Source of the DNA: an uncultured Zetaproteobacteria bacterium
GTDB lineage: Bacteria > Pseudomonadota > Zetaproteobacteria > Mariprofundales > Mariprofundaceae
Reading direction: 5' to 3'
NCBI GenBank assembly: GCA_964387725.1
Contig: CAYLYU010000001.1
Span: forward strand, 2,671-44,699
DNA: 42,029 bases
In this document: positions 21,073 through 41,637 of the stretch, one piece after another
Layout: every line of letters begins with the position of its first letter
How positions within the stretch are numbered: the first letter of the stretch is position 1
Notes under the pieces: model-generated
Database searches by the model: none
Seen by the model: the letters and a program-made list of their open reading frames with translations, nothing else
What the model was told of the DNA's origin: nothing
Made by a program: the position numbers and the translations under genes

Positions 21073-24000
21073 TCATGAAGAGCCTCTGACAATATAAGAT
21101 TTTAGGGCATACAGGCTACTGAGCAGCCAACCTCCCTTCTGACGTTGGTTAAGCTTATGCAACTCTATTGATGCCCTTTCGTGACTGATGCGCGTGGCTG
21201 CCAGTTCCTTGTATATTTTATTCGCGGTTTTTCTCCTTCTGACAGCATCACCCGTATCAAAAAACTCTTCAACCGCATCCACCATCTGTGCCAAACGGCC
21301 CTGGTCAGATGATTTGCGAAGCTGGGCGTGAACCTCCTGCATGGCATTTCCCAGGTTAGACTCAATAACGTTCAACTCGGCCTGAAAACGCTCACTCTGA
21401 CCCATCATTGAATGTCTGACATGCTCTATGCTTTCGTGAACATATTGTTCACTTAACAAGCCAAATTCCTGGAAGGATGACAGGCGCAACAAGCCTTCAT
21501 TTGCTACTCGTGGATCATCACTGCGCAGATTCTCGCAAGCTGAATAACAAGCATCCCAGGCCTGCCAGCGATACATAAAGTCAAGGCCGGTTCCTTTGAT
21601 ATTTTGCAGACCCATCATAAGGTTTGTAAATCCCGGTGGTGTCCCCTCACAAATACGTGCAATGACCTGCTCTCCAGTGGCATTGGCATCTTCAATAATG
21701 ATAAGTTTACTTTGAAACCATTTCCATTGCAGGGCATGGAACTCGTCATCCAGTGATTTATGACTGCCTGAATTCTCAGCTTGTTCAAGTTTCCCCAAGA
21801 ATGACTGGTATTCCTGATACTGCCCAAGTGAGTGTTGATGGAAAGAAATTATAGCTTCAGAATATTCCTTCACTCCTGCTTCCAAGAGTGCTTTATGAAG
21901 CGCTTCAGGCTCTTGCCATAAAGCGAGAAGACCATCCAAGTCCAGTTCGCTTCCCTGCCCTTTCAACATCACTCTCAATCTTGCCTTGAGCTTGGATTCA
22001 TCTGTTGGAATGCGGAGCAATTTTGCAGCTTGATGGGCAATCCCCTGTGATTGATGGGCGCCATCGTCTGACTCCTGCCACAGGGTTCTACCCTTACAGG
22101 ATTCATCCCAGGCCTTCTTGATATAACCTTGCAAACCGCTGAGGTTAGAACCGATAAGAAAGTGGCAGTCCGCCGATAGATCCTCAACCAGAATTTTTGC
22201 AAATGCACGAGATCTGGCAACACGATCGGCACGATTATTGACTACGGTAGAAATCCAGGTCTTGGGATCTTTTTCGGAGTCATGCTGACCAAAATTCATC
22301 CTTTCCCAGTTCTGCAAGCAGCCATAACGCTCATTAGCCGACATCCCGTTCACGAAAACAAGCTTTCGCGTTTGAAGTTTTGCTTCAGGATATTTTTTGA
22401 GAACGCCGATATCCGGAATAACACGATCGGCCATTTCCTTGAGGGCAAAATCATGTTCAACCCCCAATTCTTCAGCAAGAAGAAGCGTCAGAGCAATATT
22501 ATATGGATGTTCTTCATAGGGAAATCGTTGCAGAATATCCTCTGTTAATAAGCCTGCCTCAAGCCAGCCTATGTGTTTGAAGTTGGTATCGAGCTGCCGA
22601 CTGGCATCTCGCAAAACCGGTAGCATCTGCTCCTCACTGCAAAGCAGGGTGGATGAGCGTGGAATAAAGTTTGTCATCACCTCCGGAATATTGAAGCCGG
22701 CTGGCCCCTGTAAGTCTTCGTGATCCGGAAAGGCGTTCGTTATGGTTACAATATCATCTTTCATCCATTGGCGTTGCAGGATTTTAACATAGGAAGGAGT
22801 TAGCCCCATACACTCCCATAAAAATACGTCGGCTTTGCACCGGCCTGCCATTCGAACCAGATTGTACTGTTCCCAGATGGTTGCTTTATCATAAGAGCGG
22901 TAAAGTCCAAATTCATGCAATTTCCCGTACGGATATGAATTCAGAAACAGTGCTTCGCAGCCTGTTGTCTTTGACATTATACCGTAGCCAAGGGCATTAA
23001 AAACTGCCGCTTTCAATCTTTCAGTACCTGATTTCCCTCTGGTTCCCCAACCACCTATCACCAGGGGAAGCTGTTTACGTACCTTGGCAATAGCTCTGTT
23101 CATATAGATATGACGCCCAACAAAAAAGAGCAGAAATGCTGAAGCGAAGACGACCAACTCCTGCATTGAATTTTCATAAACGGAGAAGAAGTAATCCTGG
23201 ATACGAAACCATAGATCACTGTCACCTAAAGGCAATAAAGCCGGAAAAAAGCGGGTAACACTCGGGTCTGCCCCAAATTCAGGTCGGCCCGGGTATTGAT
23301 GGGGAGTCAAGCTTACCTTAAAGCCAAGGTCTTCGAGTGATTTGAGATAGGCATCGGCATCCAGCTGATCATCTTCCTTCCAGTTGCGGAGTCTGGCTAA
23401 GTGAGAAAACCTAAACTCCAGTCTGGCCATTGCCATCCACTGCCTGATCATTGAGCGCGGGGGCTGTAGTTTTGTAACTCCTTCACTACTATAAATATTT
23501 GTCGGTTTACCACTAATGTTGTGCTCAAGGCTGGACAGAACCTCATCCACCAGGGGTAAATATGGCCTCCAGCCCGATTCAGCAGACATAAGAAGTGGCT
23601 CGCCTGGAACCTTCGCCTCAGTCACCTCGGACATGATCGTCGAGGGGACACTGTTCCTGCCGCTAAATATTCGTCCAACAGTGTGAATAAAGCCTTGCCG
23701 TTTATCAGAGGATGGATTACGAAATTCGTGTAGAAAACGCCATAAACGCCAGCCAAACACGTGCCCACGCCTGATACTGCGGCGAAACCGGCTATCCTTG
23801 ACATCATAGCTAAAGTCACTTTGCGCGACAACTGACAAGACCCTGTGGAATAAGGCATCGTCAACTTCTGCAAAGCGTGACTTGCTTATTCGAAGTGCCT
23901 TACCGGGTTTGATCCGTCGAAGTTCCTCGCTAAGGGTTTCCTTAAGCTCACACGCCTGTGGATCTATTTCAGCCCAAACCTGTTCAGCTGCCTGCGCCGC

Positions 24001-25281
24001 CCAACGTCGAACGGAAAGGGATTCGGCATCACGATGTAGTTTATCCAGACTGGGAAAGATAGCTTTCTGCCAAATCTCAATTTCCTTCTCACCTGAACCG
24101 GCCTTAATTATATTAACAACTGTCTCCACAACCACTTTAAGGGCAACTCTCAAAACAAAGGCATCTTGCTCAAATTCAAGGGTTTCAAGCAGCAACGACA
24201 TGACAAGCTGATTGAGTTCCTGCCGCTGTAACAGCACCAGGGTTTCAAGCAGAGCAGATGCCCTCACCTCAGGGGCATCGTCCTGATGGGCAAGTTCAGG
24301 CAACCACCTCTGCACAACATCATTCGGTGCTGAACTTAGTGCCTTAGCCAATGCCTGCCTTACAAATGGACTAGGATCAACAACCACACTGGGAATAACT
24401 TCAGCCAATTCGGCAAAGCGTCCGATATACCGCCCCAATAACTTGACTGCGTGTCTGCGAACAAACATATCATCGCCGGGTTTCGGCTCAGATAACCGTT
24501 TCTTCAGCGCAAGAAGTAATGAGTCACTTGCGATACAGGCCAATAACCCCAGTGCCTCACACTGAATCCAGATATCTTGTCTTGTCTCAAAAGCAGAACG
24601 CTGAACATATAATATAGTACTTTCGGCTATAACCCCTTGCCGGGCATCTTCAGGCAGGGCCTTGATTGCTGTTGCAAGACATCTAAACGCCTCAACGCCA
24701 ACACGTTTATCACCATCGTAAGCAAGTAAAGGCTTCAGGGTTTTTTCCAGCTCAAACCGTTTCCAGGTTTTCCTTGTTCCGTCACTCGATTCAATTTGCT
24801 CCAAAGCAAAGGCGCTTATAACTCCCAATCGCTGCAGACAAAAAGCTACTTTCTGTTCGCTTGAGGCCAATTTTTTTCTATAGCGCTCTCCAGCAGCATC
24901 AAAACCAAACCAATCCGAAAAAGACTTACGGTCAGCTGCATGATTTTCTTCAGAAGAAGCTAGTTCCCTGGCGTAATCCAAAATATGCTGCCTTCTGTCA
25001 TCATCAGTGGAACATTCAACATAGCGGCGACTGAAATGAACATATCTCTGGCGCAGGGCCTGTATCTTTTTTAGGTCTTCAGTGATCGTATGTAACAGAA
25101 AAAGAACAAGTCGTTGTGCTGCAATGGTTTCCAGAGAACGTGATTCATCTGTAGAATCGTCAGGCAGGGCTGCCCAACTTCCAAATTCTCCCATTAAATC
25201 GTCGATCAGGAGTGATTCCACCTTCAACAAACGCGGATTGATATCAAGCTCTAGAAGTTTTCTTGAAGGCTCTGCGTTCAT
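21073..25281 (-). CDS. Giant fusion: ~700-aa HEAT-repeat region + hydrophobic helix + PgsB/CapB-type amide ligase (Mur-ligase fold) + coiled-coil tail
   Basis: 1402 aa. HEAT-like repeats: DMFVRRHAVKLLGRY, DPSPFVRQALAKAL, DDAPEVRASALLETL. Residues ~708-1265 are colinear with PgsB: helix LVVFASAFLLFFVG, P-loop GTRGKSGTERL (nt 23023-23046), SKTTG, WECMGLTP, TNAFPDHEDLQGP (22714-22728), FVNGMSANE, NNRADRV, GLQNIKGTG. Its start overlaps the upstream stop (TAATG). Confidence 0.75.
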   Translation of the reverse strand: MNAEPSRKLLELDINPRLLKVESLLIDDLMGEFGSWAALPDDSTDESRSLETIAAQRLVLFLLHTITEDLKKIQALRQRYVHFSRRYVECSTDDDRRQHILDYARELASSEENHAADRKSFSDWFGFDAAGERYRKKLASSEQKVAFCLQRLGVISAFALEQIESSDGTRKTWKRFELEKTLKPLLAYDGDKRVGVEAFRCLATAIKALPEDARQGVIAESTILYVQRSAFETRQDIWIQCEALGLLACIASDSLLLALKKRLSEPKPGDDMFVRRHAVKLLGRYIGRFAELAEVIPSVVVDPSPFVRQALAKALSSAPNDVVQRWLPELAHQDDAPEVRASALLETLVLLQRQELNQLVMSLLLETLEFEQDAFVLRVALKVVVETVVNIIKAGSGEKEIEIWQKAIFPSLDKLHRDAESLSVRRWAAQAAEQVWAEIDPQACELKETLSEELRRIKPGKALRISKSRFAEVDDALFHRVLSVVAQSDFSYDVKDSRFRRSIRRGHVFGWRLWRFLHEFRNPSSDKRQGFIHTVGRIFSGRNSVPSTIMSEVTEAKVPGEPLLMSAESGWRPYLPLVDEVLSSLEHNISGKPTNIYSSEGVTKLQPPRSMIRQWMAMARLEFRFSHLARLRNWKEDDQLDADAYLKSLEDLGFKVSLTPHQYPGRPEFGADPSVTRFFPALLPLGDSDLWFRIQDYFFSVYENSMQELVVFASAFLLFFVGRHIYMNRAIAKVRKQLPLVIGGWGTRGKSGTERLKAAVFNALGYGIMSKTTGCEALFLNSYPYGKLHEFGLYRSYDKATIWEQYNLVRMAGRCKADVFLWECMGLTPSYVKILQRQWMKDDIVTITNAFPDHEDLQGPAGFNIPEVMTNFIPRSSTLLCSEEQMLPVLRDASRQLDTNFKHIGWLEAGLLTEDILQRFPYEEHPYNIALTLLLAEELGVEHDFALKEMADRVIPDIGVLKKYPEAKLQTRKLVFVNGMSANERYGCLQNWERMNFGQHDSEKDPKTWISTVVNNRADRVARSRAFAKILVEDLSADCHFLIGSNLSGLQGYIKKAWDESCKGRTLWQESDDGAHQSQGIAHQAAKLLRIPTDESKLKARLRVMLKGQGSELDLDGLLALWQEPEALHKALLEAGVKEYSEAIISFHQHSLGQYQEYQSFLGKLEQAENSGSHKSLDDEFHALQWKWFQSKLIIIEDANATGEQVIARICEGTPPGFTNLMMGLQNIKGTGLDFMYRWQAWDACYSACENLRSDDPRVANEGLLRLSSFQEFGLLSEQYVHESIEHVRHSMMGQSERFQAELNVIESNLGNAMQEVHAQLRKSSDQGRLAQMVDAVEEFFDTGDAVRRRKTANKIYKELAATRISHERASIELHKLNQRQKGGWLLSSLYALKSYIVRGSS

Positions 25282-41614: not shown

Positions 41615-41637
41615 CTCCACACCTCCCTAAAGTCGCA

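Follow-up and report, generated by a model that had tools for sequence, protein, structure and literature searches.

The biology of poly-gamma-glutamate (PGA) has been worked out almost wholly in Gram-positive Bacillus, and a route for its transport in diderm bacteria is not described in the literature that we found. In B. subtilis, the ligase PgsB and the membrane component PgsC suffice for synthesis and secretion of the polymer without PgsA (PMC6029982); PgsB is cytoplasmic and helix-anchored, and the C-terminus of PgsC is periplasmic (PMC7490850). Here we analyze a stretch of 42,029 nucleotides from an uncultured, iron-oxidizing marine zetaproteobacterium of the family Mariprofundaceae (GenBank assembly GCA_964387725.1, contig CAYLYU010000001.1, positions 2,671 to 44,699 of the forward strand; hereafter the window), in which seven minus-strand open reading frames (ORFs), g1 to g7, occupy positions 21073-41620. 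Two of their products contain homologs of PgsB (g7) and PgsC (g3). We consider it rather probable that these genes specify an envelope-spanning machine of diderm cells, which would make an ATP-dependent, amide-linked poly-amino-acid, most likely a gamma-glutamyl (PGA-like) one, at the inner membrane and export it through a dedicated outer-membrane pore.

Among the known systems closest to the locus are the PgsBCA(E)/CapBCADE systems of B. subtilis and B. anthracis pXO2. The locus shares with these a homologous ligase with a P-loop and an N-terminal anchor helix as well as a homologous PgsC/CapC partner, and in both cases the two genes lie in one operon. In contrast to the Bacillus systems, however, the ligase and PgsC modules are here embedded in giant fusions (1402 and 1081 residues, respectively), PgsA/CapA, CapD, and PgsE/CapE are not in the window, and there are four further conserved proteins, which would fit the system to an envelope of two membranes. 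Which polymer is made, PGA or another, is an inference.

The overall logic of the locus is common to the synthase-dependent Bcs, Pga, Alg, and Pel systems: the synthase sits at the inner membrane, a periplasmic scaffold of helical repeats leads into an outer-membrane barrel (here a modeled one), and the periplasm contains an enzyme of hydrolase-type fold (here the predicted one, g5), all encoded in one operon, with AlgE among the structural matches of the g6 product. The synthase of those systems (BcsABZC, PgaABCD, Alg8/44-AlgK-AlgE-AlgL) is a glycosyltransferase, whereas here it would be an ATP-dependent amide ligase, and none of the accessory proteins of the locus is homologous to their components by sequence. 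In agreement with an initial annotation of the stretch, made from its sequence, profile searches of the window found no glycosyltransferase, Wzx/Wzy, or ABC exporter. Among the Pfam and NCBIfam domains (as distinct from short motifs) of g1-g7 there is also no PilZ, GGDEF, or other cyclic di-GMP module.

Co-localization of CapB and CapC is the rule by which CapsuleFinder recognizes a "PGA capsule," and such pairs have been reported in most phyla, including Planctomycetes. PGA-type genes in diderm bacteria are therefore not new as such, and, judged by the description of that rule, our locus holds a co-localized pair of CapB- and CapC-type genes. The giant fusions, the outer-membrane barrel protein, the families of g4 and g5, and the CHASE2 sensor were not among the things that the CapsuleFinder survey described or asked for. 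We found no publication that describes the architecture across the envelope, the fused proteins, or the four families without assignment, which is absence of evidence only. The initial annotation had known of no characterized system of this composition, and a paper describing one did not come to light in the literature searched either, although the coverage of that literature is incomplete and absence from it is not proof. The checks in silico that the annotation had suggested, on profile homology, structure, co-occurrence, and literature, all came out in its favor.

Core modules and accessory proteins

The g7 product consists of a HEAT-repeat N-terminal region of ∼700 residues (HEAT_2), a hydrophobic anchor helix, the ligase, and a conserved C-terminal extension of ∼340 residues, and its family alignment is conserved from end to end. 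Against the PgsB model TIGR04012 it scores 199.6 bits (E = 6e-59), with profile positions 5-332 of 380 covered by g7 residues 715-1057. Taking the experimentally defined capBCADE operon of pXO2 as the reference for comparisons with CapB and CapC, we find CapB residues 67-403 to be colinear with g7 residues 708-1057 (BLASTP; 27% identity over 351 residues, E = 2e-31). This alignment takes in the GxRGKS P-loop and the hydrophobic anchor helix, the helix at g7 residues 709-727 pairing with that of CapB in both hydropathy and alignment. The P-loop of g7, GGWGTRGKSG at residues 743-752 (GxxGK[ST] type), is invariant in 22 homologs. PgsB is a member of the Mur-ligase superfamily; no Mur synthetase model of Pfam or NCBIfam matches the g7 ligase at E ≤ 0.01. 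The sequence points to a cytoplasmic protein with a PgsB/CapB-type, Mur-ligase-like module whose ATP site is predicted to be intact.

Profiles and hydropathy show g3 to be a polytopic inner-membrane protein made up of two tandem PgsC/CapC-like domains, one more transmembrane helix, and a C-terminal domain of ∼720 residues. The Pfam family Caps_synth_CapC (PF14102) matches g3 in two stretches, with 135.8 bits compared with a gathering score of 27 (E = 1e-39), and CapC of pXO2 aligns with g3 residues 32-155 and 203-249. Since CapB aligns colinearly with g7 and CapC with both repeats of g3, homology to PgsB and PgsC within giant fusions, as first read from the sequence, is supported for the two proteins alike. 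Searches of the PDB by sequence, with g7 and g3 and with the family profiles of g6, g7, and g4, returned only HEAT/alphaRep proteins and one weak CTPR match; a PgsB or PgsC structure was not detectable there by sequence with g7 and g3.

The C-terminus of g3 also contains two catalytically degenerate copies of the g5 domain, an observation that goes beyond the initial annotation. These ∼720 residues are an internal duplication (E = 3e-14). By hhalign, the first domain matches the g5 family with 98.6% probability (E = 9e-16) and the second with 97.5% (E = 8e-12), and the two match each other with 99.6% (E = 1e-24). Both copies have A/S or R at the positions of the g5 residues H117 and H188, and because of these replacements they look like non-catalytic, binding-type paralogs of g5. 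The positive-inside pattern at the last transmembrane helix of g3, together with the mapped periplasmic C-terminus of PgsC, suggests that both domains face the periplasm.

The g5 protein itself has a signal peptide and belongs to a large family, comprising 2745 clusters at 50% identity (1085 at E ≤ 1e-30) in a profile search of 1.84 billion representative proteins, yet g5 has no Pfam match even at E ≤ 5 and no NCBIfam match. The AlphaFold2 (AF2) model of g5 has a predicted local distance difference test score (pLDDT) of 90.7, and its Foldseek matches are REP34 carboxypeptidase, the FGase-family protein Atu2144, aspartoacylase, Csd4, zinc carboxypeptidases, and N-formylglutamate amidohydrolases. 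Residues H117, D121, R147, H188, H264, and E266 are invariant across 37 homologs, and the resulting His-x3-Asp...His plus His-x-Glu pattern resembles the metal and catalytic sites of zinc-carboxypeptidase/FGase/aspartoacylase enzymes. It is the pattern that a metallo-amidase of such a fold would need, and we predict g5 to be a secreted metallo-amidohydrolase. The solved enzymes nearest to its fold are ones that we take to cleave mostly glutamate or aspartate amides: FGase, aspartoacylase/AstE, and Csd4 (gamma-D-Glu-mDAP).

A secreted polymer-hydrolase-like enzyme had been proposed for g5, of which secretion stands and, at the level of fold only, the likeness to a hydrolase; membership in the Gamma_PGA_hydro/PghP family does not, there being no PF05908 match. 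With the group formed by PghP, zinc carboxypeptidases, FGase, and aspartoacylase, g5 would share, to judge by its weak fold matches, a general alpha/beta fold and the metal-site-like pattern. Because PghP, a Zn2+ peptidase, is a relative of carboxypeptidase A, the resemblance between g5 and PghP is at the level of fold class only. The g5 family profile has no sequence match in the PDB, the PghP structure 3a9l included, and 3a9l is not among the top 50 fold matches of g5. One protein of 1157 residues (P0271) has a g5-like domain at its C-terminus (residues 857-1125) and may be a g4-g5 fusion.

The largest product, g6, has a signal-peptide-like N-terminus and an N-terminal region, followed by a SPOR domain, by helical repeats and beta-sandwiches, and at the C-terminus by a beta-barrel. 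In the AF2 model of residues 901-1889 (29 homologs, pLDDT 82.6), DSSP assigns 15-16 long antiparallel strands after the helical repeats and beta-sandwich domains. In Foldseek the barrel matches OmpG (2x9k, 2iwv, and 2wvp; template modeling [TM] score on the target 0.59-0.69, E ∼1e-8) and also porins, AlgE, intimin, and EstA barrels. Model and structure search agree on the helical-repeat protein with a C-terminal beta-barrel that the annotation had described. The periplasmic part is, however, not a classic TPR array but a mixture of helical repeats with beta-sandwiches and the SPOR domain, with one weak CTPR match. Together, the signal-peptide-like N-terminus, the SPOR domain, and the modeled barrel make g6, on this model, an outer-membrane barrel protein that is tethered to peptidoglycan and extends very far into the periplasm. 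In the g6 ortholog of a Sulfuricellaceae locus (L016, 4183-10008) and in one further homolog (P0141), an OmpA domain stands in the place of SPOR, and the two kinds of peptidoglycan anchor appear interchangeable in the family. We note that the barrel ends in the beta-signal-like sequence ...GFISLTWHF and is followed by a conserved tail of ∼40 residues, GxGRxYRDFxPG...RRxP, at residues ∼1850-1889 (25281-25400), which has low pLDDT. No homology was detected between g4 and g6.

Hydropathy gives g4 one N-terminal hydrophobic helix, and the protein is probably periplasmic and anchored by its N-terminus. Its orthologs have ∼830 residues, and a search with their profile turned up nothing related to the conserved part in either Pfam or the PDB. 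The g4 of the window is larger by virtue of a beta-propeller, matched by Sortilin-Vps10 (E = 4e-15) and by BNR and PSII_BNR models. Orthologs elsewhere align only with residues 47-401 and 734-1136, and BNR models match just one of the 18 family members, the window's own. The propeller is thus a lineage-specific insertion and not a conserved part of the machine, a point that is new here: the anchored periplasmic beta-propeller that had been proposed is present in g4, but as a component of the machine it is confined to that one family member.

A sensor and a receiver gene head the operon, as the annotation had it. The g1 product has a periplasmic CHASE2 domain (residues 23-289, E = 7e-19) and three to four transmembrane helices, and g2 is a stand-alone receiver (Response_reg, E = 5e-18). 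The cytoplasmic C-terminus of g1 is histidine-kinase-like, with weak matches to HATPase_c, HisKA, and PAS. Among 42 g1 orthologs there is no conserved His in the H-box region (residues ∼690-720, ...FRNDLQS...) of the dimerization and histidine phosphotransfer (DHp) domain, and the family retains the ATP-binding boxes N, G1 (N.G.G.P), and G2 (S..G.G). These features mark the g1 family, which is closely tied to the operon, as one of atypical or pseudo histidine kinases. In g2 the phospho-acceptor Asp is replaced by Gly (IILGLTMQ; most orthologs have ILDLMMP and a few have Glu), and EED stands where the acidic pocket DDD is expected, so that g2 in this genome is probably independent of phosphorylation. 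The combination of DHp His and receiver Asp that marks a canonical two-component pair is not found in g1 and g2 of the window.

Recurrence of the gene order

A metagenome scan anchored on the C-terminus of g3 (trimmed alignment) yielded 76 loci, and the counts that follow are over those loci with enough flanking sequence. The order g1-(g2)-g3-g4-g5-g6-g7 recurs across them. In 46 of 55 loci g3 is preceded directly by g1, and in 20 of these 46 g2 stands between the two. On the other side, g3 is followed directly by g4 in 57 of 63 loci; g5 is present in 42 of 49, g6 in 37 of 42, and g7, also downstream of g3, in 35 of 38. Such repetition of one gene order, in dozens of independent contigs that belong to several phyla, is beyond chance. 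On these counts the conserved unit is g1 together with g3-g7, with g2 optional; of the seven families whose co-occurrence had been proposed, six recur together.

The 1400-residue fusion of HEAT repeats and PgsB has 89 full-length homologs, annotated as hypothetical or automatically named PgsB. The nearest genome match is a Mariprofundaceae metagenome-assembled genome (MAG), with 91% identity for g7. Hosts of g7 homologs include Sulfuricellaceae, Burkholderiales, Methylococcales, Thiogranum, Steroidobacteraceae, Magnetococcales, Planctomycetes, Desulfobacula toluolica, and Ca. Electrothrix. When g7 is used as the anchor, the order g3-g4-g5-g6-g7 is seen in D. toluolica Tol2, in cable bacteria, and in Burkholderiales, Sulfuricellaceae, and Methylococcaceae MAGs. 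The gene set spans Pseudomonadota, Desulfobacterota (cable bacteria and Desulfobacula), and Planctomycetota.

Some loci have other arrangements. In L023, L026, and L027, g7 is downstream of g3, and it is followed by g1 in L023 and L026 (and by g2 in L026). The g4 gene is on the opposite strand in L023 and L027, as are g5 and g6 in L023. In L034 and L093 there is no partner gene within 10 kb of g3.

A gene of the CapA/PGA_cap family adjoins the cluster in three related loci, one in a Methylococcaceae MAG (L017) and two on metagenome contigs (L065 and L066). The CapA-like protein of L017 has 860 residues and is fused to a CarboxypepD_reg domain. Neither CapD nor CapE was found in the window or in the 94 loci searched, and CapA was found in those three loci only. 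The absence of PgsA/CapA and CapD, which the annotation had listed as a property of the system, is therefore true of the window, but a CapA-like gene stands beside the cluster in three of its relatives.

Proposed pathway and alternatives

In the pathway that we propose, cytoplasmic g7 would join glutamate into a polymer, for which the two PgsC domains of g3 would provide a conduit through the inner membrane. The degenerate g5-like domains of g3, together with the anchored g4, would receive the chain and guide it across the periplasm to g6, which, pinned to peptidoglycan, would form the exit pore. A role for g5 in trimming, releasing, or clearing the polymer would be comparable to that of BcsZ, AlgL, PelA, and PgaB with polysaccharides. 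Through the CHASE2 domain of its sensor, g1 (helped by g2 in the loci that have it) may couple production to an envelope or external signal, in this genome probably without canonical His-Asp phosphotransfer.

Several points weigh against this pathway. The product is so far a predicted one. Both core modules score below the equivalog cut-offs of their models (g7 below the 222.7 bits of TIGR04012; g3, with 62.7 bits, below the 96.45 of the PgsC model TIGR04011), so the substrate could differ from glutamate. The topologies of g7, with a 700-residue region ahead of its single hydrophobic helix, and of the g3 C-terminus are predicted ones, and the barrel of g6 could be an anchor instead of a pore. 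The fold matches of g5 are weak (TM 0.36-0.43, among PDB and viral proteins), although all belong to one fold group, and relaxed Pfam, PDB-profile, and two fold searches rule out g5 as a member of PF05908. No fold or role is assigned to g4, to the N-terminal 640 residues of g6, or to the parts of g7 on either side of the ligase. In a few loci the cluster is rearranged or g3 stands by itself, and the window is without CapA/PgsA, CapD, and CapE; the CapA-family gene beside the cluster in three loci counts in favor of the pathway.

The main rival, because both core modules fall short of those cut-offs, keeps the architecture and changes the chemistry: the locus would make and export a different poly-amino-acid or a mixed polymer, or would add glutamyl or aminoacyl groups to a lipid-, glycan-, or protein-linked acceptor that is then exported. 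Identity to CapB is just 27%, the PGA systems of Bacillus have nothing that corresponds to the accessory proteins or to the large, conserved N- and C-terminal extensions of g7, and the lack of CapA, CapD, and CapE in the window would be in keeping with another product. Against this, the PgsB match is full-length, colinear, and paired with PgsC, its specific partner, three loci have a neighboring gene of the CapA family, and the enzymes nearest to the g5 fold presumably act for the most part on Glu and Asp amides. We regard a different chemistry as rather unlikely, while giving it more weight than any other alternative. An envelope-remodeling complex, which would modify, tether, or recycle peptidoglycan peptides with the g6 barrel as a mere outer-membrane anchor, would account for the Mur-ligase ancestry of PgsB, for the peptidoglycan peptidases (Csd4, M14-type) among the fold matches of g5, and for the SPOR domain of g6 here and the OmpA domain in its ortholog, and the polymer is itself inferred. 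Yet the ligase matches PgsB specifically and no Mur synthetase model at the threshold given above, and the two PgsC domains have no role in peptidoglycan precursor synthesis. The layout, moreover, parallels that of synthase-dependent exporters, with an inner-membrane synthase, a periplasmic scaffold fused to a barrel that has about 14-16 strands, and an enzyme of hydrolase-type fold in the periplasm. Because the PgsB/PgsC pairing is specific and the layout exporter-like, remodeling is the less likely of the two, and we consider it improbable.

A resemblance to the stalk-formation (sfz) cluster of Zetaproteobacteria had been suggested in the initial annotation, with equivalence as a possibility, and the window does come from a Mariprofundaceae genome. 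The two loci have in common their bacterial class and their status as candidate extracellular-polymer loci. The genes sfz1-6, about 0.9-7 kb in length, encode a BcsB-like protein, a GT2 protein with an EpsE-like domain, a GH10 protein, an SH3/CotH protein, and two proteins of unknown function (Koeksoy et al. 2021, PMC8250860). Of the domains found in Sfz proteins, none occurs in g1-g7 according to Pfam and NCBIfam: neither the BcsB-like part of Sfz1, the GT2 of Sfz2, the GH10 of Sfz4, nor the SH3 and CotH of Sfz6. The sfz cluster is glycosyltransferase-based, and our module is present in many bacteria that do not oxidize iron. This difference in gene content from the published cluster rules out equivalence, and we give the idea that the locus is the sfz cluster or its equivalent practically no credence.

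Layout of the window and significance

The features of the locus are listed in Table 1. The seven ORFs lie at the coordinates originally given for them, and all six junctions, read again directly from the sequence, abut or overlap as had been claimed. Promoter-like consensus matches are not more numerous in the window than expected by chance, and the position of the one at 41638-41667 fits the start of an operon. This site and the terminator-like hairpin beyond g7 are both weak, yet they are placed as a single transcription unit would need. A second terminator-like hairpin with a T-run, at 41666-41687, overlaps the -35 element of the promoter-like site above g1 and may be the end of an upstream transcription unit.

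Table 1. Features of the g1-g7 locus and CapA-like genes of related loci
Feature	Position	Strand	Remarks
g1	38900-41620	-	906 aa
g2	38529-38900	-	123 aa
g3	35274-38519	-	1081 aa
g3 PgsC-like repeat 1	38013-38450	-	residues ∼24-169; PF14102, TIGR04011, and CapC alignment
g3 PgsC-like repeat 2	37500-37913	-	residues ∼203-340, ends approximate; second PF14102 stretch, CapC (E = 0.005), internal repeat (E = 5e-6)
g3 degenerate g5-like (amidohydrolase-fold) domain 1	36588-37334	-	residues ∼396-644; BLASTP of g5 against g3, E = 6e-5
g3 degenerate g5-like domain 2	35670-36353	-	residues ∼723-950
g4	31818-35270	-	1150 aa
g4 insertion, seven-bladed BNR/Sortilin-type beta-propeller	33081-33998	-	residues ∼425-730; seven Asp-boxes, 435-715
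g5	30947-31831	-	294 aa
g6	25281-30950	-	1889 aa
g6 SPOR peptidoglycan-binding domain	28794-29012	-	residues 647-719; PF05036, E = 1e-11
g6 C-terminal outer-membrane beta-barrel (modeled)	25401-26273	-	residues ∼1560-1850; ∼14-16 strands; AF2 model
g7	21073-25281	-	1402 aa
g7 PgsB/CapB-homologous ligase module and anchor helix	22111-23160	-	residues 708-1057; CapB BLASTP
g1/g2 junction	TGATG, 1-nucleotide overlap	-	sequence read directly
g2/g3 junction	9-nucleotide gap, stop codon spanned by AAGGA	-	sequence read directly
g3/g4 junction	3-nucleotide gap, GGAGG before it	-	sequence read directly
g4/g5 junction	14-nucleotide overlap	-	sequence read directly
g5/g6 junction	ATGA, 4-nucleotide overlap	-	sequence read directly
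g6/g7 junction	TAATG, 1-nucleotide overlap	-	sequence read directly
Promoter-like site, sigma-70-like	41638-41667	-	TTGATT, 18-nucleotide spacer, TATAGT; just upstream of g1 start; consensus match only
Terminator-like GC hairpin CCCCGATCCGGGG, then T-run	about 21020-21042	-	∼30 nucleotides past g7 stop; weak consensus match
CapA-like gene, L017	14518-17100		CapA/PGA_cap family
CapA-like genes, L065 and L066	3434-4552		CapA/PGA_cap family

The flanking genes are housekeeping ones: a phosphoribosyltransferase, RNase J, FtsK, LolA, a FadL-like protein, RarA, and an aa3 oxidase cluster. The last is an aa3-type cytochrome c oxidase cluster at 1566-11983, with COX1, COX2, COX3, an SCO1-like gene, a CtaB/UbiA-family gene, and CtaA; a second, highly divergent COX1-like ORF (PF00115, E = 9e-18) lies beside ctaA at 2624-3982. 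An apparent ORF-poor gap of 1.2 kb at 12230-13176 contains two small minus-strand genes, whose products of 147 and 124 residues look, on reading the sequence, CBS-domain-like and CrcB/FluC-like, respectively. The whole window contains no Rfam family, fluoride riboswitches included, and no tRNA.

The module comprises six to seven conserved genes, with four families that lack Pfam and NCBIfam models (g4, g5, the C-terminal domains of g3, and most of g6), and it ranges from Zetaproteobacteria to cable bacteria, methanotrophs, sulfur oxidizers, Desulfobacula, and Planctomycetota. Cultured carriers are Desulfobacula toluolica Tol2, Aromatoleum evansii, and an Azospirillum strain. It is possible, and we suggest it tentatively, that this is the first "synthase-dependent" trans-envelope pathway whose product is a non-ribosomal polyamide and not a polysaccharide. 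Such a system would be widespread in diderms, with at least about 1000 protein clusters at 50% identity, and would combine a PgsB/PgsC-type ligase-translocon with periplasmic pseudo-amidase guide domains not described before, a new amidase family, and a dedicated giant outer-membrane pore anchored by SPOR. If the proposed pathway is correct, the locus would represent a new class of exopolymer secretion system together with a new amidase family that has pseudo-enzyme paralogs. It would also be a candidate source of a polyanionic metal-binding matrix in iron- and sulfur-cycling bacteria: in iron oxidizers and cable bacteria, a polycarboxylate of this kind could act as an extracellular matrix that binds metals.

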